This document shows, in pieces, positions 4,241 to 24,483 of a DNA stretch of 30,618 bases (position 1 is its first letter; every line of letters begins with the position of its first letter). The notes under the pieces were generated by a model, which worked only from the letters and a program-made list of their open reading frames with translations, did no database searches and was not told the DNA's origin. Both the position numbers and the translations under genes were made by a program. The DNA comes from a virus (lineage: Duplodnaviria > Heunggongvirae > Uroviricota > Caudoviricetes), in IMG/VR virus record IMGVR_UViG_2563366903_000024, one strand, 5' to 3'.

Positions 4241-4423
4241 TCACGATTTCAACGCAATGACCAGTTTTGCCAGCCCATACAGCATCGGGGACACAGCAAC
4301 ACCGACCGCCACCCACTTAATGGCAAAAGCCAGTGCTCTGCTGATGTCATCAGTTACAGGCGCTTTCAGTTCAAGGCCGTTTTTCATAGTCAACCTCAAC
4401 AGAATTCGTTTATACTTTTCCAT
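4241..4423 (-). CDS. Small hypothetical protein (60 aa) with C-terminal hydrophobic segment
   Basis: Internal ATG of track ORF 4241..4456, preceded by AGGGAG. Product MEKYKRILLRLTMKNGLELKAPVTDDISRALAFAIKWVAVGVAVSPMLYGLAKLVIALKS. Start is uncertain. Confidence 0.3.
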   Translation of the reverse strand: MEKYKRILLRLTMKNGLELKAPVTDDISRALAFAIKWVAVGVAVSPMLYGLAKLVIALKS

Positions 4424-4462
4424 GTTCTCCCTTGCCTTATCCAAGGTCAGAAACACAAAACC

Positions 4463-4492
4463 CCGCTTGCAGCCAACAAACGGGGTTTTTAC
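4463..4492. terminator. Hairpin flanked by T/A-rich runs on both strands, between endolysin and the downstream small ORFs
   Basis: aaCCCCGcttgcagccaacaaaCGGGGtt with T-rich flank on the plus strand and on the reverse complement. Stem is short and loop long, so this is weak. Confidence 0.3.
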
Positions 4493-4579
4493 TTTTATTC
4501 ACTTAGTTTTTGTCAGTTCGCAGGATTTCGTGTTATCCGTCCGTGTGAGCAAACCGCATTTTTCAGCAAAATATTCTGC

Positions 4580-5113
4580 TTATCTGTCAATTCCCCAGCA
4601 CGCCAGCGCGCTCTCCTGGTCACGCCGCGATACCTGCCCGTAACAGTTATTTGAGCGATTCCGACAGTCCCTGCCGCCGTCATATATCCATCGGCGGATT
4701 TCAGCACATCCACCTTTCCGGTCTCCGGCGTTCAGTTTCCGGTAAAACGTTGAGGTGAAGCATTTCGAAGGCCCGATGTTGTACGGACAGAATGACGCGA
4801 TCCCCGCTTTCTGGGGTTCAGTCAGTGGCAATTTGATGTTTTTCTCCACCCATGCCAGCGCCTTATCACGTTCAATGGCATTAACCTGAGCGCATTTTTC
4901 CTTCGACAACTTCATGCCCGGGACGACAGGTTTGCCATCCACCATGATGGCACCACGGCAGATGGTCCAGATCCCCGCACCATCACGGTATGCCGTGGTG
5001 TGGTTACCTTCTTTTTCGTCAAGAAACTGGTCGAGGATTTCAGGCGCAGAAGCACCTGTGGCAATCAGCGCCAGAACGGCTACCGATAAACCATAGTGGA
5101 GTTTCCTGCTCAT
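4580..5113 (-). CDS. R: SAR endolysin (phage lysozyme with N-terminal signal-anchor-release domain)
   Basis: 177-aa protein with an N-terminal hydrophobic Gly/Ala-rich segment (LSVAVLALIATGASAP) followed by a lysozyme body. Sits directly downstream of the pinholin, as in phage 21 and the DLP12 RrrD type. Confidence 0.85.
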   Translation of the reverse strand: MSRKLHYGLSVAVLALIATGASAPEILDQFLDEKEGNHTTAYRDGAGIWTICRGAIMVDGKPVVPGMKLSKEKCAQVNAIERDKALAWVEKNIKLPLTEPQKAGIASFCPYNIGPSKCFTSTFYRKLNAGDRKGGCAEIRRWIYDGGRDCRNRSNNCYGQVSRRDQESALACWGIDR

Positions 5114-6055: not shown

Positions 6056-8008
6056 TCATGCCGCGGCATCCGCGTTGTTCACTTCCACCTTCACACTGTC
6101 AATCAGCAGCGTATATGTCGCCGCCTTTGATATGCCTGTCAGTTGCAGTTTGTCCGCCGCCCCTGATGCCGGAGATTTCACCAGTGTGAACGGCGTCCCC
6201 CGTTTCTCATCCAGTACCGGCGTCACCTGAATGCTGTTGTTTCCGGCAAACTCAAAAGCCAGTGTGTGCCATCCGTTATCAAAGACCCCGAACGTATCCA
6301 GCTTCGCATTCGGCTTCTTGTGGTGCATCGCGTTCAGGTTCGTCGCATCCGTCTGCAGGAAGAAGGACATCAGCATGTCGTTGCCTTCCTCTGCCAGCGT
6401 CACTCCCTCCGGCAGGGACGACAACTGCCAGTAAATGCCCAGGGCAAACTGATTCGGCACCAGTGAACCCGGCAACTTAAACCGTACGCTCACACGTCCC
6501 CCCTTCTTCAGTAACTCCACTCCCTGTCCGGCTGCATCATGCTCCAGAAACCAGATGTGGTTTTCCGGTTTATTCAGTTGCAGGGCCTTACCTCCCGTAG
6601 CCCCCGCATCACTGACCACCGCTTCAGCAATGTTTTTGTTAACATTGTCTCCGCTCGCCGGTTTGTGATAATAGCGCCAGCCCTGTGATGCCAGGTCTTC
6701 GCCGGACGCCAGCAGACTCATCAGGGTTCGGTTACTGACCGGGGCTTCCGGCTCTCTCTCCGTACCTTCACCGGAGGGTCCGGTGGGCTTCACCGTATCA
6801 GGCTGTTTTCCGGTAATGAATTCAGCGGTTCTCCCGGCATGCACAAGAATCGCCGTTGCCAGACGGTCGGAAATAATCCCACGACGTGCCCATGATCCAA
6901 AATGCGTTTTACGGTCAGCCGTCGTCCAGGTTTTGGCGTCCGTTCGACCACCGGCTCCGTAATACCCAATATCCGCAACATCCGGATCTTCTGACGGCTC
7001 GTTGGTACCCACATTTCGCCCGTTTTCATCCGTCATAAACGGCACAAAGAAGATTTTTTTTGCGGATTTCGTCTTGTATGCACCATACACCGCATCGTAT
7101 TGCGAAGAATAAGTCTGCTTCCAGTAGTAGGTCGTGTCGCCACAAATCCAGGGAACCGATGACGGAGAGCCCCCGAGACACTGACCTCCGAATTCCGACA
7201 GGTCAGAACGATATTTTTCCACCATGGAATCAAACAGCCCCGGCTGACTGGCGTACGCTCCCTGTTTTAAATCAAACTCGCCCTGCATCCAGACCACTGC
7301 AAGCAGAATATTTTTAGGGTTAGCCTTCAGTGCGGCCTGAGTACGGGTAAGCAGGTCCTTGTACAGTGGCTTATCTACACCCCAGCGTGCCGAGGTCTCG
7401 CTTGCGCCGGTGGATTCGCTGAAAGTACCTTCATCGCCCGCCAAAAATGCAGAACCACCACGGCAGCACGGAACCAGAAGAATACCGGCATTCGCCGGAA
7501 TAAACGGCAACAATTTCTTCGCGATATGTAATCCCTGCCCCACGCATCCATACTGAGCTGCGCTGGCTTTCGGGTGTGAAAACTTACTCAAATCCTGAAC
7601 ATCATGCAGGCAGTGGTCCGCAGGAATAATGTCATTGTAGTTACAGGACGCACCACCCGGCGTGACAGTGCTGCGACGCGCCAGCTGTTTAATACGCGGG
7701 TCCGGACGGTCATATGTCTCCGGCAGCGGAAGCCCTTCACCATACGCCATACCGTTTGACTGCCCGGCCAGAGCGATTACGAAGTAGTATTCCGGCTCAC
7801 CGATCACTGTCTCGTTATCACCAGGTGAAGCAGGAGTGAGCACATCATTTTCACTCACGACTGGCTGAATAAATTCCGCGCCATAACCTGCTGTCGAAAT
7901 AATCGGACTGCCAAACGGCTGCCAGCCTTCCTTCAGTTTTTGTGTCAGTCGCTCCGCAAGGTCTGAAGGCGAAGCAGCCCTGACCACATCATAATGTTTA
8001 AATGCCAT
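6056..8008 (-). CDS. nanS-p: SGNH-hydrolase esterase resembling prophage NanS-p sialate O-acetylesterase
   Basis: 650-aa ORF with SD GGGAGGA before the ATG and a GQSN SGNH-hydrolase motif (ALAGQSNGMAYGEG). The N-terminus (MAFKHYDVVRAASPSDLAE…) matches my recollection of the large ORF downstream of stx in Stx phages. Confidence 0.7.
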   Translation of the reverse strand: MAFKHYDVVRAASPSDLAERLTQKLKEGWQPFGSPIISTAGYGAEFIQPVVSENDVLTPASPGDNETVIGEPEYYFVIALAGQSNGMAYGEGLPLPETYDRPDPRIKQLARRSTVTPGGASCNYNDIIPADHCLHDVQDLSKFSHPKASAAQYGCVGQGLHIAKKLLPFIPANAGILLVPCCRGGSAFLAGDEGTFSESTGASETSARWGVDKPLYKDLLTRTQAALKANPKNILLAVVWMQGEFDLKQGAYASQPGLFDSMVEKYRSDLSEFGGQCLGGSPSSVPWICGDTTYYWKQTYSSQYDAVYGAYKTKSAKKIFFVPFMTDENGRNVGTNEPSEDPDVADIGYYGAGGRTDAKTWTTADRKTHFGSWARRGIISDRLATAILVHAGRTAEFITGKQPDTVKPTGPSGEGTEREPEAPVSNRTLMSLLASGEDLASQGWRYYHKPASGDNVNKNIAEAVVSDAGATGGKALQLNKPENHIWFLEHDAAGQGVELLKKGGRVSVRFKLPGSLVPNQFALGIYWQLSSLPEGVTLAEEGNDMLMSFFLQTDATNLNAMHHKKPNAKLDTFGVFDNGWHTLAFEFAGNNSIQVTPVLDEKRGTPFTLVKSPASGAADKLQLTGISKAATYTLLIDSVKVEVNNADAAA

Positions 8009-8186
8009 GAATCCTCCCGGCCGGGATAGTGGGTTGAATCAGATAAGGACTGACTGAAGTCTGAAAATACAAAAGACAACTGCCAGTAAAAACGAAAAGG
8101 CCGCGCAGTTGCGCAGTCTCATCACCATCGGGTATTATTCACACGGTGAATAATCGAAACTCACTTTCTTTGTTTTATTCCTTGCC

Positions 8187-8215
8187 GCTCGCGCCTCCCG
8201 GCGCGGGCTTTTTTT
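8187..8215 (+). terminator. Rho-independent terminator on the plus strand (antisense to the late genes)
   Basis: GC-rich stem GCTCGCGCC / GGCGCGGGC with tccc loop, followed by a run of 7 T. Confidence 0.5.
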
Positions 8216-8221
8216 GCATGT

Positions 8222-8250
8222 AAAAAGGCCCCTGCGATGAGGGGCCTGAG
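8222..8250 (-). terminator. Rho-independent terminator downstream of the RM specificity gene
   Basis: 8-bp stem AGGCCCCT / AGGGGCCT with 6-nt loop, followed on the minus strand by TTTTTAC. Confidence 0.45.
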
Positions 8251-8618
8251 AGTATTACCTGGTTTCAGTTAACTGCATAGTGCCGGGTGCCTCCCGGTGA
8301 GTTCAGCCCGGTGCCACCGAACCCGCGTCTTTCACATTGCCTGTGACATTAAAAATGCCAGCCCGCACCAGCCGCCCCGCCGCTGAGGGGGATTCACCAT
8401 GCGTTGCGATTTTTAACAAATTCACCGCCAGCCAGACAATCATCAACTTGCTGAATTGTGAGGTATTTAAAAATTTCCCCGATTAACTGATACCCTGCTA
8501 ACCACCTGTTGTTTTCTTTTTCAGCAACAAAAAAGCCCGCTCATCGGCGGATTCGGCTGCGTGGCAATGTAACCATTCTTATCATGATATGAGGATTTTT
8601 ACGATTGTAAAATGTTTT

Positions 8619-9713
8619 TTAACTGACACCAGAATCATCATAACCGCGACTTGTTATAGCTTGCCTGTATGCGTTCATTTTGCGTTCTGCGTACTGGACA
8701 ACATCTTTAATGACAAGCTTATGAACAACTGAAATAAGGTCATTTATATAACAAAAGTCAGGTGACTTATTTTTCACTGGCAACCAAATAACATCGTTCT
8801 TAATTTTTCTATTACTAACACTATCCCCCCATGAATATTTATGTGAAATAGACCTATAAATACATGAAATAATGCCCAAATAAGCAAACTTTGTCCTTCC
8901 ATCCTCATTGTTAACATAGAGTCGCAAATTATGACTGTCGTTTGAAAAAAAGTCTCGCTCCTGATAAGTTACAACGAATGTCTTACCACCAATAAAAATA
9001 CAGTTCCCTTTTTCCAAGAGTGAGTCATCATAGGCGATATAAGAACTAACAGAGTTATTATCACGGCTAGCACAAAGATAAGGAACATCCCCACTATTTT
9101 CTATGATGTCTCTAGACAATATGTTTCCTGTATTGCACACTGAGAATAACTCAGTAACAGGAAAGCCTGAAAATTCAATATTTTTAAAATGTTCCAGGAT
9201 AAGATAATCTTTTTCCGTTAGTTGGTAATCACTCAGCCCAGCAGCTATCAGGTATGCTTCCAGCTCTTCTATATGGGCCGCTTCCAGCTCTTCTATATAA
9301 TTATCCATAAAAAACCAGTCAATTTCATTATTTTTCACTGGTAATGAGATGAAATATTCTCCATCTCTGAGTTTGGAACTCGATAACTGTTGACCATAAT
9401 TAAAACGCCCCTTTAAAGCTTTATTAATCATACTGGCAACATACAGTCCGCGCTTTGCATTAAAGTCGGACTTACTTGATTTTAATGTAAGAACATGCAC
9501 CTTCATTTCTACGCTGGCACAATAAGGATGATAAAAAGCATCTCCAAAAAAATTAACGCTTATAAAATTTTCATAATGCCTTGCATCATCCATAAACTCG
9601 GTATCAAACTCTCCGATGATACCGTTTTGATCGCTCTTTGCTGAAACACGTTTGATTTTGCCTGGTTTTAATCTTCCTGAGGAGATAAGCGAGCCTGTGC
9701 TCACATAGAACAA
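8619..9713 (-). CDS. HsdS-like specificity subunit (two target-recognition domains around a helical spacer)
   Basis: 364-aa protein with two-fold internal architecture: each variable half ends in a similar segment (ISLPVKNNEIDWFFMDNYIEELE and IWLPVKNKSPDFCYINDLISVVHKL) followed by a predicted helix. Apparent TTG start with AGGA upstream, 60 nt after the methyltransferase stop. Confidence 0.5.
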   Translation of the reverse strand: MFYVSTGSLISSGRLKPGKIKRVSAKSDQNGIIGEFDTEFMDDARHYENFISVNFFGDAFYHPYCASVEMKVHVLTLKSSKSDFNAKRGLYVASMINKALKGRFNYGQQLSSSKLRDGEYFISLPVKNNEIDWFFMDNYIEELEAAHIEELEAYLIAAGLSDYQLTEKDYLILEHFKNIEFSGFPVTELFSVCNTGNILSRDIIENSGDVPYLCASRDNNSVSSYIAYDDSLLEKGNCIFIGGKTFVVTYQERDFFSNDSHNLRLYVNNEDGRTKFAYLGIISCIYRSISHKYSWGDSVSNRKIKNDVIWLPVKNKSPDFCYINDLISVVHKLVIKDVVQYAERKMNAYRQAITSRGYDDSGVS

Positions 9714-9772
9714 ATCGCCAATCCTGAACTCTCCCCACTCAACGCTTCTTAATTTATCGCTGAGCGGGGAAT

Positions 9773-11734
9773 TTACTTTCCCGCAAAATTGTTTTCACCT
9801 TGTTTTTTCAGTAATTGCGAGACCTCCCATGCAAGGTAATCACCTACCGTCTTTTTGAAATCCTCCAGCGTTGGCCTAGCATCTACTGGCCTGGTCTGAT
9901 TCCAGTCCTCACCACTATCAGGATCGATTGTTCCCTCAAAATATTCATCCTCCGTAAAGATATTAAGGCAACCTTTCCCGAAGTGAACCAGATCCACAAC
10001 CTCCTGATAACGCTCTTTTGCACGATCGGCATCAACAAGATTGTTTCTTGCCTTTTTGCGATTAGAGCGAGCGTAGCCGTCATTGGAAAAGTCGATAAAC
10101 TTAACAGCCTGTTTCGCGTTATGCGGAATTTTTACCTGAAAAACGTAAATGTACGTCTGAACGCTTGATTTACCAATAAACAGATCCGCAGGCATTTTGA
10201 TGCTTGCCAGCAAGGTATTTTCCTTGAGTATTTTTTTGTTGTACTCCGTAGCCTTTCCTGTGCCAGCTGAACTCTGGATAATCACTGCAGCATAGCCTTT
10301 ATCCATCATCGACAGCGCCTTCTGCACGAAAATCATGCCGTTACCTTTAGCTGAATACGGAGGATTGAGAATAAATGCGTCCGCAGGGAATTTTTCTCCT
10401 GTTTTCCCAAATCCATACTTGCCGTCAAAATCGGCCAGCGAGTCTTTATTGAGGATATTCGAGCTACCATCCCCCATCAAAATCATATTCAGGATGGCCA
10501 GCATATAAATACTGGATAACACCTCAAGGCCAAGAAGCTGTTCAGCCTTGATTTGCGCTTCCTTAAGTTGTAGTTCGTTCGGTGAGTGAATATTTTCTCT
10601 GGCGTCAATGAGCATTTCATTCATTGCAGCCACAAGCAATCCCGCAGAACCTGTAGCAAAATCCCACACATAGGAATCTTTGTTTACTCTGGCGAGTCGT
10701 GCCAGCAATGTGGCAACATAAGGTGGTGTCAGAACGACGTCATTGAGCTTGTCCTGCGTAAATCCAAGCCAGCGATACATCTCATTAAACAGTTTGCCCG
10801 TAAAATCGGTGGTCAGTCCAATTTTGTAATACTCCCCAAGATCATCAACAACTTTAACAAACACGCGCTTTAACTGGCTTTCACCGTTGACTGGTTTGTT
10901 AATGTTTTCAGTCCACAGCGTATTTTGCAACGAGCGCAAAATCATTTCTCTTTTTGTTTCAGGAACAGCTTTCAGCCTTAAAAAATTCCTTATTTTCCTG
11001 AAAATAATATCACCATCACGCAAGTCCTCCTCCGTTGAAGAGGTCAGTTCTTTTTTATCCAGCGGTGCTAACTTTCCCGGAATCCCCAACGTTGCAATAA
11101 CGGTAGCCACAACAAGGTAAACACGATCGCTTTCACCAAGCCCCTTTTCATTCTGGTAAATATCGTTATTCAGACGGGAAAGTCGCGTGTCTATCTCTTC
11201 CTCTTTGCTGGCCTTGATTTTTTCCAGTTCTTCGGGAGGAAGATTAAGCAGCTTTATCTTGTTGAGAAATCCATCAACATTTTTGTCAGCAAGGAACGAT
11301 AAGTCGGTGAATTCACCAACCTTCTGTCCGGCTCCTAAATTATTCTTTGATACGTACCACACGCCGATTTCATGATGCAGTTCGCCTGTACCATCATCGC
11401 GCCAGCCGGTCATACCAATAGCAATAATATCAGGGTAATTGGTGAACTGAAGAAGTGCGTTGGCATAATGGACTGCGCCATTCACCGCGTATCCATTAAT
11501 ATTTTTAAAATTCCATTCTTTTCTGGCATCTTTGTTCTCAATAATACCGTTGCTGCCAAGTCTGATAAGCCTGTCCTTGTAGCCTTTATACTCGATGAGA
11601 ACGGGATACTGCTTGCCGTATTTGTCCTTAACAAGGAGTTTTACGTCGGGACGATTACCGCCTGCGCCGCCATTTTTCGAAAAATAAGCGTCCAGTGCGT
11701 TATCGATCTCTCCGTTAAGTGATGCATTCTGCAA
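9773..11734 (-). CDS. N6-adenine DNA methyltransferase with N-terminal PD-(D/E)xK-like region (BcgI-A-like); body ORF currently out of frame with its ATG
   Basis: 653-codon ORF with AdoMet motif (VWDFATGSAGLL) and catalytic NPPY motif (ILNPPYSAKG). N-terminal third has a possible nuclease motif (RPD…x16…EYK). No ATG near its 5' end; the frame is open upstream through the 7-nt repeat tract. Confidence 0.7.
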   Translation of the reverse strand: MQNASLNGEIDNALDAYFSKNGGAGGNRPDVKLLVKDKYGKQYPVLIEYKGYKDRLIRLGSNGIIENKDARKEWNFKNINGYAVNGAVHYANALLQFTNYPDIIAIGMTGWRDDGTGELHHEIGVWYVSKNNLGAGQKVGEFTDLSFLADKNVDGFLNKIKLLNLPPEELEKIKASKEEEIDTRLSRLNNDIYQNEKGLGESDRVYLVVATVIATLGIPGKLAPLDKKELTSSTEEDLRDGDIIFRKIRNFLRLKAVPETKREMILRSLQNTLWTENINKPVNGESQLKRVFVKVVDDLGEYYKIGLTTDFTGKLFNEMYRWLGFTQDKLNDVVLTPPYVATLLARLARVNKDSYVWDFATGSAGLLVAAMNEMLIDARENIHSPNELQLKEAQIKAEQLLGLEVLSSIYMLAILNMILMGDGSSNILNKDSLADFDGKYGFGKTGEKFPADAFILNPPYSAKGNGMIFVQKALSMMDKGYAAVIIQSSAGTGKATEYNKKILKENTLLASIKMPADLFIGKSSVQTYIYVFQVKIPHNAKQAVKFIDFSNDGYARSNRKKARNNLVDADRAKERYQEVVDLVHFGKGCLNIFTEDEYFEGTIDPDSGEDWNQTRPVDARPTLEDFKKTVGDYLAWEVSQLLKKQGENNFAGK

Positions 11735-12105: not shown

Positions 12106-12261
12106 TTACTTCTCAGATTCGTAGTCTACGAAGACAGCGACCTCCGTCTGGCCGGTTCGGATTCGTACCTCGCAGAAGTCTTTCCTCGTTACCAGTGCTA
12201 TCACTACGACGGTAATACAGATGACGATCAGGGCGATTAACATCGCCTTTTGCTGCTTCAT
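12106..12261 (-). CDS. hok: Hok/Gef-family type I toxin (small membrane peptide)
   Basis: Unlisted 51-aa ORF MKQQKAMLIALIVICITVVVIALVTRKDFCEVRIRTGQTEVAVFVDYESEK, very like E. coli Gef/HokC. SD AAGGAG before the ATG. Confidence 0.8.
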   Translation of the reverse strand: MKQQKAMLIALIVICITVVVIALVTRKDFCEVRIRTGQTEVAVFVDYESEK

Positions 12262-12431
12262 AGCCTACTTCTCCTTGCCTTTCGGCACGTAAGAGGCTAA
12301 CCTAAGTTTGTAAGTCATAGATTTGGCCTCAGATTAATGTTAAGCGTCCTGCAAGACGCGTAATGTTAACTGGGGCTTTTCTCTGTCTGCCTTACGGCTG
12401 CATGCCCGAGGCAGACAGCCTCAAGCACCCG

Positions 12432-13079: not shown

Positions 13080-13438
13080 ATGTTCTCCAGTTCGGTGATT
13101 TTTATCCCCACTCTACCGCCAGGCACTTTCACGCCGCGAATTACGCGAATGTCATCGAATTGCTCGTCGTCTTCCGCAAATCCGGCGTGGATAAGAGAGT
13201 CGAGTAAACCTTTCAGGATGTTATCGAGGTCGCGACGGCGGGAATCTGGTGGTTCAGCAATAATTGTGATGCGAAGTCGTGATTTAGTGAAAATGTCTAA
13301 TCTGAGTTGCCGGATGATTTGCTGTACGTCTTTTCGGTATTTCTGGCCTTTATCGCTGATGTAGTACTGGCTTCCCCGTCTTCGCCAGTAGGTATTCACC
13401 GTCGGCGGCCAGGGAAGCACAAACTCATATTCATTCAT
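13076..13438 (-). CDS. rusA: RusA-family Holliday junction resolvase
   Basis: 120-aa protein with RusA hallmarks (LPWPPTVNTYW…, DSRRRDLDNILKGLLDSL). Overlaps neighbours by 4 nt at each end. Confidence 0.85.
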   Translation of the reverse strand: MNEYEFVLPWPPTVNTYWRRRGSQYYISDKGQKYRKDVQQIIRQLRLDIFTKSRLRITIIAEPPDSRRRDLDNILKGLLDSLIHAGFAEDDEQFDDIRVIRGVKVPGGRVGIKITELENI

Positions 13439-13728
13439 GACTTAATCTTCCCCTCCTTCAGCAATATCGCCAGCGTCCTGATCACGCCTTCCAGGTGGTA
13501 AAGTCTGGCGTCGTTGTTGTCGAGAATGCGAGTACGGCGATCGATTTCATTATGGCAGTCACTACAGGCCCATGCAGCCAACAGATCATCTGGCTTTGTT
13601 CCCGTTCCGCAAATTCCAGCCATTCGGTAATGCGCCAGAACTGTAGTTTCAGGGTTGCCATTGCATACGCCATAAATCCGTACCTGGCATTCTCTGCCGC
13701 GCGCTTCTTTGCGTAGGTTTGTCATCAT
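13435..13728 (-). CDS. YbcO-like protein (DUF1364, cysteine-rich putative nuclease)
   Basis: NLRKEARGRECQVRIYGVCNGNPETTVLAHYRMAGICGTGTKPDDL…CSDCHNEIDRR resembles DLP12 YbcO. Start at ATG 13728 with SD GAGGAA. Confidence 0.7.
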   Translation of the reverse strand: MMTNLRKEARGRECQVRIYGVCNGNPETTVLAHYRMAGICGTGTKPDDLLAAWACSDCHNEIDRRTRILDNNDARLYHLEGVIRTLAILLKEGKIKS

Positions 13729-13748
13729 CTTATTCCTCATGCAGTAGG

Positions 13749-15094: not shown

Positions 15095-15261
15095 AACGAC
15101 CTCGCGTTTCGATAATTTTTACCTCACCACCTTCAGGTGCTAATCATCGTGGTGGCGAACTGTGCGGGGTTAGCACTACCGGTCGAAACATCCGGCGAGC
15201 CTTTCGGCTCCCCCACACAGCCCGCCATAAATCGCGAATGTGACTGTGCCTAGCGCATAAA

Positions 15262-15286
15262 AAAACCGCCAGCGCGGTTATGCACC
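15262..15286 (-). terminator. Hairpin plus T-run on the minus strand
   Basis: AACCGC-cag-GCGGTT stem followed on the minus strand by TTTTTTT. Which transcript it ends is unclear. Confidence 0.3.
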
Positions 15287-15411
15287 GTTTCGATATCCGG
15301 GGTGCTAATCCCGACGCCAGATTTTGCTGGCGTGCGAAGAATATAATCCCGGATATGTGTTGTCGTCAACATACCTTGAATGTATATAACAAATTTGTTA
15401 TGTTTACTCTC

Positions 15412-21978: not shown

Positions 21979-22200
21979 TTAATTACACAGTCGCATATCC
22001 TGAAGTAACACATCTATAGCTAACTTCACAGCGAGATCATCCAATTCATCATGGTGAAGCACTCGGATCATTCCCGCAATAGCATCTGCTGAAATAGCTT
22101 CCCCAGTAGCAATAACCTCAAGCAACGACACCCCTAGAATTTCGACTACCCGCTGGTGCAACACACCAAATTCCCCTTCGATTAACATGCAATCACCCAT
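21979..22200 (-). CDS. Hypothetical 73-aa protein between cI and pL/N, antisense to cI
   Basis: ATG at 22200 preceded by SD GGGGGAAAGG (MGDCMLIEGEFGVLHQRVVEILGVSLLEVIATGEAISADAIAGMIRVLHHDELDD…). No family recognised. Confidence 0.45.
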   Translation of the reverse strand: MGDCMLIEGEFGVLHQRVVEILGVSLLEVIATGEAISADAIAGMIRVLHHDELDDLAVKLAIDVLLQDMRLCN

Positions 22201-22261
22201 AACAATCAGCCTTTCCCCCTTGAAAATATCACGCGGATACCACAAAAAATAAAATATTTTT

Positions 22262-22337
22262 GTTATCAGTCATTTATAACGTTTTTCATAAAATGATAAA
22301 TATAGTTATTGCACAACCAGATAACTTAGGTTATCTT
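22262..22337 (+). promoter_or_regulatory. OL/pL candidate: operator half-sites overlapping a sigma70-like promoter directed toward N
   Basis: ATAACttagGTTAT (22321-22334), same half-sites as OR. TTGCAC (22309-22314), 17-nt spacer, TATCTT (22332-22337). Confidence 0.4.
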
Positions 22338-22383
22338 CAATTCAACAGCAGGACGCTGGAAGCCAAACGGAACAGATTGGCCG

Positions 22384-22423
22384 GCTCTTTAACATTGATG
22401 GACTCTCAACCTAACCGTTGAGA
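22384..22423 (+). promoter_or_regulatory. nutL candidate (boxA plus boxB hairpin) upstream of N
   Basis: GCTCTTTAACATTG (boxA-like) followed by hairpin TCTCAAC-ctaacc-GTTGAGA, about 110 nt before the N start. Confidence 0.55.
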
Positions 22424-22533
22424 CCAAAATCTAAGTGGTTTTGGGGATGACGCGAATTTCAGTTGCAAGGCCGCGATCGAGAAGAAAAACACCTCGACGC
22501 GTCATACACCAAAGCCACTTAAAGGAGACCATC

Positions 22534-23267: not shown

Positions 23268-23627
23268 ATGAATGAAACAGAACTGAAGCACATTATCGCC
23301 CTGCTTCTGGAAGATGCCAGACAGGTTTATCGACTTAGCCCAAATTTCGCAACGCAGGAACGCATCCGGATAGCGGAAACAGCACTGAAACAGGACAATG
23401 GAAACGGCATATCCAAATTTAGCGCCGCCAGTGAAAATGAAGTAATAGAAATAAACAGCAATATCAGCGACAGTTGCGTCGCTTACAGCCACCAAATAAT
23501 TCGTGTAAGTGCAAGAATAATGGAAGTGATGGCAAGTGAGCTTGAAAAGAACAACATCAAGCCCACTGATTGTTGTTTAAGAACCGTAATGAACGTTATT
23601 TATTACTCGATGTTCCGAAGTCGCTAA
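23268..23627 (+). CDS. Hypothetical protein (119 aa), early-left operon
   Basis: ATG at 23268 with GGAG upstream (MNETELKHIIALLLEDARQVYRL…). Confidence 0.45.
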   Translation: MNETELKHIIALLLEDARQVYRLSPNFATQERIRIAETALKQDNGNGISKFSAASENEVIEINSNISDSCVAYSHQIIRVSARIMEVMASELEKNNIKPTDCCLRTVMNVIYYSMFRSR

Positions 23628-23805
23628 CAGCGTCGAGTTTTTCATTAAAAAATGATTCAAATGCATCGTAAAATACGGCAATAGCACCGCCCTTATCTAC
23701 CGCGGCAGGAACTGCCTTTTGAGGTATATCTTTCTCCCTGAATTGTGTGTTGTAGGTATCGACAGCCAGCCGCATCAGAAACATCACTTTTTCTTCTTGT
23801 GTCAT
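23596..23805 (-). CDS. Hypothetical protein (69 aa), opposite strand
   Basis: Track ORF only. Overlaps the 3' end of the preceding plus-strand ORF. Confidence 0.25.
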   Translation of the reverse strand: MTQEEKVMFLMRLAVDTYNTQFREKDIPQKAVPAAVDKGGAIAVFYDAFESFFNEKLDAVSDFGTSSNK

Positions 23806-24029
23806 AAACTCACTCTCCTTACGGGGTTTGTAGTTGAGGAGTTCTCCACGGGTGAGGTGGAGATCGTGCGCCGGACACGGGTAAGTTCCGGCACTCTCAG
23901 TTTACTGAACAGACATTACCCTGAAAGCCAGGGTACAACACGAAAGTGCACGGCGAAGACTCTTTCCCATTGAAGGCTTGTCGTTAGATTTCTTCGACCG
24001 TGCGCTTCCGGTTGTGAATAACAACATTG

Positions 24030-24085
24030 CTGTGTGTAGCCCTTGGCGGACATCGGTTTGCCGATTGCTGATGTCCGCCCTTTTT
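24030..24085 (+). ncRNA. DicF-like small RNA candidate ending in an intrinsic terminator
   Basis: Lies in a 440-bp ORF-free stretch of the pL operon. 10-bp stem GGCGGACATC / GATGTCCGCC (24045-24054 / 24070-24079) followed by CTTTTT. Sequence (CUUGGCGGACAUCGG…UGCUGAUGUCCGCCCUUUUU) resembles E. coli DicF as I recall it; 5' end undefined. Confidence 0.4.
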
Positions 24086-24261
24086 AAAGTGAATTTTGTG
24101 ATGCGGTGAATGCGGCTATGCGCACGCGGAACAGTTAAACCGACAGGATGTCACGGAAAGTCATCGTCCCCTGACCCGGCGTTAGTTGTTAACTGGTTAA
24201 CGTCACCTGGAGGCACCAGGCACCGCATCAACAAAGTTCATTTGTGAAAATGGAGATAATT

Positions 24262-24483
24262 ATGATTGCTCATCACTTCGGAACTGATGAAATACCACGT
24301 CAGTGCGTGACGCCTGGCGATTATGTTCTTCATGAAGGTCGGACATATATCGCTTCAGCAAACAATATTGAAAAGAGAAAACTCTATATTCGTAACTTCA
24401 CAACAAAAACATGCATTACCGACTGCATGATTAAAGTTTTCATCGGGCGCGATGGCTTACCCGTAAAAGCAGCGTCGTTGTGA
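24262..24483 (+). CDS. Hypothetical protein (73 aa)
   Basis: ATG at 24262 with GGAGA upstream ([32 protein letters not shown]…). Confidence 0.35.

Follow-up and report, generated by a model that had tools for sequence, protein, structure and literature searches.

A probable KilS-type small RNA in the kil leader of an Escherichia coli prophage, located in the slot of dicF

INTRODUCTION

The prophage small RNA (sRNA) KilS of Escherichia coli K-12 is annotated in strain MG1655 as the noncoding RNA kilS (b4833; 98 nucleotides [nt], 1418502 to 1418405) in the Rac prophage, where kilR follows directly downstream. It was predicted from data of Hfq RIL-seq (RNA interaction by ligation and sequencing) and verified by northern blotting, being present in the wild type, absent from an hfq deletion mutant, and accumulating in stationary phase (PMC8175672). 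Its transcription start was placed at 1418502 (transcription start sites of Thomason et al.), an internal RNase E site at 1418471 (nt 32) lies directly 5' of the block AUUGCUG, and yncL is a reproducible RIL-seq partner (PMC8175672). Here, we analyzed a 30,618-nt stretch of viral DNA (IMG/VR record IMGVR_UViG_2563366903_000024), referred to as the window, which is a chromosomal lambdoid prophage of E. coli. We propose that an element in the leader of its toxic kil gene, situated in the slot of DicF, is probably an allele of KilS, that is, a base-pairing sRNA whose terminator also blocks transcription into kil.

Two further sRNAs are relevant to this locus. The 3' region of DicF pairs with the ribosome-binding site of ftsZ (PMC5069750). 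The processed form of RprA consists of the last 47 nt, is made by RNase E, and starts with A-AUUGCUG (PMC9262595). In our literature search, only one paper naming KilS was found (PMC8175672), in which DicF and RprA are not mentioned, and no paper was found that links KilS to either of them. Neither the RefSeq annotation of strains other than K-12 nor Rfam contains KilS. Beyond the published description, the following appear to be new: KilS and DicF as alternative cassettes of one slot, the modular composition of seed and hairpin, and the correspondence of the KilS seed to the start of processed RprA.

RESULTS

Identity of the element

A preliminary description, made from the letters of the window, had placed a DicF-like sRNA candidate at 24030 to 24085, an interval that lacks the first 4 nt of the likely processed RNA but otherwise covers it. 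The region of about 440 bp without open reading frames (ORFs) that it had reported was recovered as a gap of 456 bp lacking any annotated feature in the identical chromosome of strain ES5. Only unannotated ORFs of up to 84 amino acids (aa) were present in this gap (23806 to 24261) in a mechanical ORF list. K-12 KilS could be aligned end to end with positions 23994 to 24085 of the window, with 69 of 99 columns identical (70%). The differences were found mostly in the hairpin interior and the first six bases. The coordinates of all features are listed in Table 1.

Table 1. Positions of the features discussed in the text (window coordinates unless a locus is named)
Feature	Position	Strand	Basis
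Full-length equivalent of K-12 KilS, 92 nt	23994-24085	+	Alignment with MG1655 kilS; 5' end inferred from the start of transcription in K-12 (PMC8175672 Table S6)
Small 5' hairpin, CGACCG / CGGUUG	23995-24014	+	Minimum-free-energy and centroid fold of 23994-24088
Probable RNase E processing site between AAC and AUU, cut before 24026	24023-24028	+	Inferred: the K-12 KilS site precedes the same AUUGCUG block; A/U-rich context kept here
Single-stranded seed AUUGCUGUGUGUAGCCCUU, 19 nt	24026-24044	+	Unpaired in centroid structures
Intrinsic terminator: 13-bp stem, 9-nt loop, C + U5	24045-24085	+	Fold energy
Structured kil leader, STnc100-like; closing long-range helix 24081-24108 / 24225-24250	24081-24250	+	Fold
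kil (KilR-type inhibitor of FtsZ), 73 aa	24262-24483	+	Prokaryotic Genome Annotation Pipeline (PGAP) 'kil' with note on Rac prophage Kil; PHROG 294 'Kil protein for bacterial septation inhibition', E = 8e-36
Stretch without annotated genes, 456 bp	23806-24261	.	RefSeq: no feature between minus-strand hypothetical coding sequence and kil
N-like transcription antitermination gene	22136-22519	+	PGAP 'transcriptional antitermination N peptide' in the identical ES5 record; upstream, same operon
Window's hairpin and kil leader behind the CCAUGUAUCAAUAUCCUCUUU seed, Shigella phage 75/02 Stx (also POCJ13)	L249 1460-1560		

A strong intrinsic terminator on the strand of the early-left (pL) operon, also claimed in the preliminary description, was confirmed. 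The arms of its stem, GGCGGACAUCGGU (24045 to 24057) and GCUGAUGUCCGCC (24067 to 24079), are followed by C and UUUUU (24080 to 24085). The 73-nt terminator stretch folded with an energy of -25.9 kcal/mol, compared to -14.6 +/- 2.8 kcal/mol for 200 dinucleotide shuffles (z = -4.0), none of which was as good. The reverse strand has no T run at this position, and the terminator is found on the + strand only. A simple consensus terminator scan did not call the hairpin, because its loop exceeds the maximum of a scan which admits loops of 3 to 8 nt only. Further upstream, the sequence GUGCGCYUCCGGUUGUR in the small 5' hairpin was 93% conserved across 21 distinct alleles.

Modular composition of the slot

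To compare the element with its relatives, viral contigs were scanned with a 27-mer from the conserved downstream flank. This yielded at least 120 loci (numbered with the prefix L), which together with the window, the ES5 locus, and phage Tritos represent 123 copies of the slot. From each copy, the 75 to 95 nt upstream was parsed. Among the matches listed, the canonical DicF seed accounted for about 65 copies and the class of the window, AACRACAYUGCUGUGUGUAG, for about 40, the remainder being several rarer seeds. The KilS-type seed was combined with five hairpin classes among these matches: the K-12 KilS hairpin (28 copies), the canonical DicF hairpin (4 copies), the hairpin of the window (4 copies), and two others. 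Its tail also varies naturally, with GUCCU, GUCUU, GCCCUU, and GAAGUACC being observed.

The reverse combination was found as well. The hairpin of the window is joined to two different seeds, the other one being the unrelated CCAUGUAUCAAUAUCCUCUUU of Shigella phages 75/02 Stx and POCJ13. In these two phages, the breakpoint between seed and hairpin is located exactly at UUGGCGG, and from there onward the hairpin and kil leader are 97% identical to the window. For 21 distinct alleles with a KilS seed, the mean pairwise identity was 93% in the seed 14-mer AUUGCUGUGUGUAG, 93% in the conserved 5' region, and 61% in the hairpin interior. This pattern of conservation suggests that the single-stranded 5' part is under selection, whereas the hairpin needs only to fold. 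In the 123 copies of the slot, the 5' seed and the terminator hairpin behave as separate modules that are exchanged by recombination.

The seed is also associated with the gene that follows. Among the matches listed, the DicF seed was followed by dicB in 57 of 60 readable copies and the KilS seed by kil in 34 of 41. It should be noted that the copies are phylogenetically non-independent and that the elements lie about 200 bp apart, so that these counts represent an observation and not a test. In approximately 10 of the 123 copies (L006, L025, L041, L048, L051, L056, L067, L070, L087, and L114), the gene located about 165 to 190 nt after the slot is neither kil nor dicB. This third cargo gene encodes a conserved protein of about 240 aa starting with MLNVAIENQNGWNYSAPAPHKTGAG.

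Among the matches listed for other genera, the KilS seed with a longer hairpin was present in Citrobacter, Serratia, Rahnella, Mixta, Trabulsiella, and Superficieibacter. In Citrobacter murliniae, a cI-type repressor lies upstream of the seed and long hairpin, within the early region of a prophage. The seed UGCUGUGUGUAGUCUU of these other genera is fused to a GGCGGUACC...GGUACCGCC terminator hairpin (L182, 6440 to 6530, minus strand; also L144, L146, L148, L179, L203, L228, and L244), which encloses a conserved core containing a Shine-Dalgarno-like AAGGGGGA and an AUG (GAAGAUAAUGUUCU). The scan across genera employed a loose pattern (18 specified bases, variable gap) that returned mostly chance matches; requiring a following terminator left 10 relevant loci among the matches listed. 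Within E. coli, the allele of the window (70 nt) occurred in 66 of 5426 complete genomes (52 at a coverage of 80% or more), the O104:H4 outbreak lineage included, and was chromosomal and unannotated in all of them. The K-12 KilS allele was present in 1534 of these genomes and canonical DicF in 3975, the latter with 6700 copies.

Resemblance to RprA

The first 14 nt of the window seed, AUUGCUGUGUGUAG, are identical to nt 60 to 73 of RprA (MG1655 rprA), and K-12 KilS shares 16 nt with it. The match is longest in the sister alleles L089 and L108, where 20 nt, ATTGCTGTGTGTAGTCTTTG, agree exactly with RprA nt 60 to 79, and about 31 of 35 positions agree if the comparison is extended upstream. At the size of an E. 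coli genome, the corresponding BLAST E values were 1.1 for the window, 0.078 for K-12 KilS, and 3e-4 for L089. The match to RprA is significant at the level of the family and not for the window alone. With the covariance model of RprA (RF00034), a permissive search returned a match at 23978 to 24089 with 29.7 bits (E = 0.23), compared to a gathering score of 70.

On one reading, the phage RNA is a mimic of RprA, its seed having been copied from, or having converged on, the 3' block of RprA in order to regulate or compete for the targets of processed RprA independently of Rcs/Cpx. This idea extends the assignment to KilS and does not compete with it; we regard it as possible but unlikely. In its favor, besides the 20-nt match of the sister alleles, the distance of the block to the terminator stem is the same in RprA and KilS, and the block starts at a 5' end made by RNase E in both RNAs, with the window reading AAC/AUUGCUG at 24023 to 24029 (the slash denotes the probable cut). 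In the Rfam consensus of RprA, the block is the run of strongest conservation (written in upper case), and processed RprA acts on narP by itself (PMC9262595). Against mimicry, the known pairings of RprA in E. coli (hdeD and the narP translation initiation region) involve mostly nt 30 to 70, upstream of the block or only overlapping it, and the allele of the window shares no more than 14 nt, with the 5 nt after them being different. The block may instead serve recognition by RNase E or Hfq rather than target choice. If mimicry were true, KilS-type RNAs would let a prophage switch on or compete with part of the RprA program, alongside Kil and independently of envelope-stress signaling.

The kil leader and the proposed mode of action

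Downstream of the terminator, the kil leader (24081 to 24250) folded with -63.6 kcal/mol (z = -4.2; 0 of 200 shuffles as good). Its closing helix comprises about 27 bp, and the leader domain carries a UCACCUGGAGGCACCAGGCACC motif. A permissive Rfam search matched the leader at 24082 to 24276 to STnc100 with 31 bits. At the same leader position, this model scored 34.4 bits in Qin, 32.9 in phage 75/02, and 28 in Rac, all of them below the gathering score of 47. The same element is located behind dicF in Qin and behind kilS in Rac. Across the loci, the flanks of the leader were near-invariant and its central hairpin was hypervariable in both sequence and length. The pattern by which the loci were collected fixed the 5' arm of the helix (ascertainment bias), so that covariation within this collection is no fair test of the helix.

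The 5' arm of the leader helix corresponds to the sequence where RNase III generates the 72-nt form of DicF (PMC5069750). In an alignment, this sequence was near-identical between the window and Qin, and the leader of the window may thus be cleaved by RNase III as well. A 45-aa ORF (MRLCARGTVK...) is contained within the structured leader at 24110 to 24247 (+ strand). The open frame persists in some other loci (L025 and L108) despite their variable center; the ORF lacks a convincing ribosome-binding site and is probably noncoding. The Pas sRNAs (bioRxiv 10.64898/2026.05.13.724894) were considered as a possible identity of the element and ruled out. Their loci belong to late regions, close to Q and the lysis genes, and neither DicF nor kil is mentioned in that paper.

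We envisage the following mode of action. Transcripts would originate from pL, to which a weak local promoter at approximately 23985 to 23990 may add, and would end at the intrinsic terminator, keeping kil silent until N-mediated antitermination after induction. A cut by RNase E at about 24025/24026 would release an RNA of approximately 60 nt, composed of the conserved single-stranded seed at its 5' end, the terminator hairpin, and the U tail. A seed, a terminator hairpin, and a U tail constitute the usual build of an Hfq-dependent sRNA. In the read-through RNA, the U tract and the 23 nt after it would form a long helix with the sequence immediately preceding the ribosome-binding site of kil. 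This helix is a likely substrate of RNase III, as reported for dicF, and its cleavage would detach the sRNA from the kil mRNA at a point shortly before the Shine-Dalgarno sequence of kil. The freed sRNA would then act in trans by pairing of its seed with host mRNAs. Hfq binding, processing, and targets are presumed for the allele of the window by analogy with the K-12 RNA.

As a candidate target, yncL was evaluated with the seed. In the K-12 RNA, CAUUGC/UGUGUGUAGU was predicted to pair with positions -38 to -17 of the yncL leader at -20.8 kcal/mol, with 5 of 100 shuffles being as good; this prediction is suggestive only. Duplex prediction with full-length RNAs was discarded, as it produced long, interrupted, and meaningless duplexes. 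When the window was searched for sites complementary to the seed, allowing up to 3 mismatches, nothing other than the seed itself was matched.

Several observations weigh against a trans-acting KilS-type sRNA at this locus. With yncL, the allele of the window reached -18.9 kcal/mol, and 14 of 100 shuffled seeds were as good. Two of its seed positions differ from K-12 (GUCCU to GCCCUU). Its own match to RprA spans only 14 nt with an E value of 1.1, significance being obtained only via sister alleles. The RIL-seq partners of KilS itself number only 3, with no regulation demonstrated (PMC8175672). A promoter scan found no site upstream of the sRNA, and the extended -10 of K-12 kilS is not kept (TG to CG and a 3-nt deletion). 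The K-12 element TGTTAAATT reads CGTTAGATT here, which makes a promoter of its own doubtful for this allele. Supply of the sRNA through read-through from pL is possible.

Some of these points would be accommodated by another explanation, according to which the locus is only a terminator or attenuator with a structured leader guarding kil, and the short RNA is a by-product without a role in trans. As kil is toxic, a terminator that is overridden by N antitermination is what would be expected in a pL operon, and both the few RIL-seq partners of KilS, none validated as a target, and the nonsignificant target pairing predicted for the allele of the window agree with it. However, a terminator alone does not account for a single-stranded block of 14 to 20 nt that is kept at 93% identity while the adjoining hairpin swaps among five classes, nor for the retention of the seed block across genera with a different hairpin. 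In K-12, moreover, the RNA is stabilized by Hfq and forms chimeras with yncL (PMC8175672). We consider this explanation improbable, and a KilS-type sRNA that combines base pairing with termination upstream of kil remains the likely interpretation.

Relationship to DicF

Both flanks of the gap show homology to the regions between ydfC, dicF, and dicB in phage Tritos and in Qin of K-12, extending over about 215 nt on the 5' side and about 170 nt on the 3' side. Tritos, a phage with annotated DicF, matched the query in these flanks. The central cassette, DicF included, comprises about 190 nt in Tritos and Qin versus about 58 nt in the window.

A covariance search for DicF (RF00039), proposed in the preliminary description as a check, returned no match at the gathering score of 48. 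In a permissive search of 701 bases (23700 to 24400), the model matched 24031 to 24080 with 29.5 bits (E = 2.4e-4). As controls, K-12 dicF scored 76.7 bits and K-12 KilS 39.1 bits, the latter also being below 48. The match is based on UUGGCGG...CCGCCC, i.e., the base of the hairpin and the tail. The DicF-like sequence and shape noted in the preliminary description are thus real but weak: they are confined to the hairpin base and tail, in a dicF slot with homologous flanks, and the element is not a member of the DicF family. That description had named the joint lack of an Rfam hit and of a stable small transcript as grounds for dismissal. At the gathering score there is indeed no hit, and the lack of a stable transcript is contradicted by published northern blots of the K-12 orthologue, which is stable and Hfq dependent (PMC8175672).

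Sequence alignments confirmed the earlier statement that the seed is unlike that of K-12 DicF. The 5' seed of DicF, UUUCUGGUGACG, which pairs with xylR and pykA, is absent from the window, where AUUGCUGUGUGUAGCCCUU stands in its place. Likewise, the 3' segment UUUUACUCCGUGACUGCUCUGCC of DicF is absent from the window and replaced by CAUCGGUUUGCCGAUUGCUGAUGUCC. Repression of ftsZ and metabolic mRNAs, mentioned in the preliminary description as the function of DicF-type sRNAs, is not transferable to this element because both the 5' seed and the ftsZ-pairing 3' region have been replaced. A divergent DicF orthologue that represses ftsZ translation and the metabolic targets in the manner of K-12 DicF is very unlikely, since the shared slot and flanks, the common GGCGG...CCGCCCUUUUU hairpin base, the subthreshold Rfam match, the FtsZ inhibitor encoded downstream, and a 6-nt loop stretch (CCGAUU) complementary to AAUCGG just upstream of the ftsZ Shine-Dalgarno sequence are set against a score below the gathering score where canonical DicF reaches 76.7 bits, the loss of the regions that pair with ftsZ (PMC5069750) and with xylR and pykA, and duplex energies of the processed RNAs with the ftsZ leader that give no support, in a test that is uninformative as 14 of 100 shuffles matched even true DicF. 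KilS and DicF are diverged siblings.

Prophage context

A search with 451 bases of the window gave an identity of 100% to strain ES5 and of 99.3% to outbreak strains of O104:H4. Coordinates of the ES5 record were transferred to the window by adding 17849 (4287 to 4670 for the N-like gene). In the ES5 annotation, the + strand carries, in this order, a LexA-type cI repressor, several small genes, the N-like antitermination gene, two hypothetical genes, the gap, kil, recE, gam, bet, exo, and int. As the repressor, the antiterminator, kil, the recombination genes recE, gam, bet, and exo, and int are all on the + strand, the assignment of the element to the early-left operon strand in the preliminary description holds. 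The opposite strand of the window carries the Q antiterminator, lysis genes, and terminase.

Amid the + strand early-left operon, the minus strand carries an annotated hypothetical gene of 69 aa (WP_000189936.1) at 23596 to 23805, and its end adjoins the start of the conserved noncoding region. The spacer upstream of the sRNA (23830 to 23990, + strand) shares about 85% identity with its ydfC-dicF counterpart in phage Tritos and contains three hairpins, UCUCCAC/GUGGAGA (23843 to 23863), GCCGGA/UCCGGC (23870 to 23892), and UACCCUG/CAGGGUA (23917 to 23935).

At gathering scores, Rfam returned five RNA matches in the whole window (STnc100, sok, isrK, C4, and c4-a1b1), none of them at the sRNA site. 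Full-length STnc100 (149 bits) is located at 8216 to 8432 on the minus strand, downstream of the Q antiterminator gene (9623 to 10057, minus strand), and looks like a late-promoter leader RNA. It lies inside a stretch annotated by PGAP as a frameshifted DUF6645 pseudogene (6670 to 8605), and this call may be partly an artifact. C4 antisense RNA (75 bits), isrK (76 bits), and the c4-a1b1 target element (47 bits) are found together at 15148 to 15346 (minus strand), at the boundary of DUF977 and DUF1627 genes; this cluster is a P1/P7 immI-type antisense control module within a lambdoid prophage. The sok antitoxin RNA (118 bits) at 12256 to 12430 (minus strand), in the nin region between an intact and a truncated gene encoding ORF6N domains, implies a hok/sok-type toxin locus. 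Close by, at approximately 13147 to 13730 (+ strand), the annotation lists a HigB/HigA-type pair. A plasmid origin, either P1-like or conjugative, had been suspected from the C4, isrK, and sok matches and was ruled out by the chromosomal lambdoid nature of the window.

DISCUSSION

The sRNA candidate upstream of kil is real, but it should be labeled as KilS-type and not as DicF, and ftsZ, xylR, and pykA should not be assigned as its targets. More broadly, and only tentatively, the dicF/kilS slot could be a recombination-driven cassette site in which temperate phages of Enterobacterales mix seeds and hairpins, the second commonest of the sampled seeds, that of the window, being a copy of the most conserved block of RprA, which RNase E exposes at the same place. 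The seed-swap variants form a natural series that can be used to study how phages evolve regulators of host genes. Exchange of modules, the pairing of seed and inhibitor (DicF with dicB, KilS with kil), and the match to RprA make a poorly characterized sRNA directly testable.

Among the known systems, STnc100/PasD (RF02076), prophage RNAs next to the late-gene antiterminator Q, resemble the kil leader in the closing helix and the UCACCNGGAGGCACCNGGCACC motif. In contrast to them, the leader scores below the gathering score, lacks its own terminator, and continues into the ribosome-binding site of kil.

RprA is a core-genome sRNA controlled by Rcs/Cpx. Its likeness to the element is the block AUUGCUGUGUGUAG, extended to as many as 20 nt in sister alleles and placed at the processed 5' end. 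The element does not belong to the RprA family; it lacks the 5' hairpins of RprA and its rpoS-pairing GGAAAUCCCC, and it differs from RprA in terminator, genomic context, and control.

With DicF, the element shares the early-left operon slot between the immunity-side genes and a division-inhibitor gene, homologous flanks, the hairpin base, and the tail. The downstream helix, where RNase III makes the long form of DicF, is also present in the window, and the logic of an sRNA followed by a gene for a division-inhibitor protein is the same. The DicF locus, in contrast, has about 130 extra nt upstream of the RNA, and its partner gene is dicB instead of kil.

The closest described system is KilS (Bar et al. 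2021, PMC8175672), of which the element is probably a rare variant. Differences from it concern the hairpin, which in the window is an uninterrupted 13-bp stem with the loop UUGCCGAUU and in K-12 a bulged stem with a 19-nt interior, the seed tail (GCCCUU versus GUCCU), and the first 6 nt and -10 region, which are of the dicF-locus type and not of the Rac type. Both elements occupy the same position and strand directly upstream of kil, and they have in common the conserved 5' region, the AUUGCUGUGUGUAG seed, the RNase E context, the GGCGG/CCGCC base of the stem, the U tail, and a structured leader downstream.

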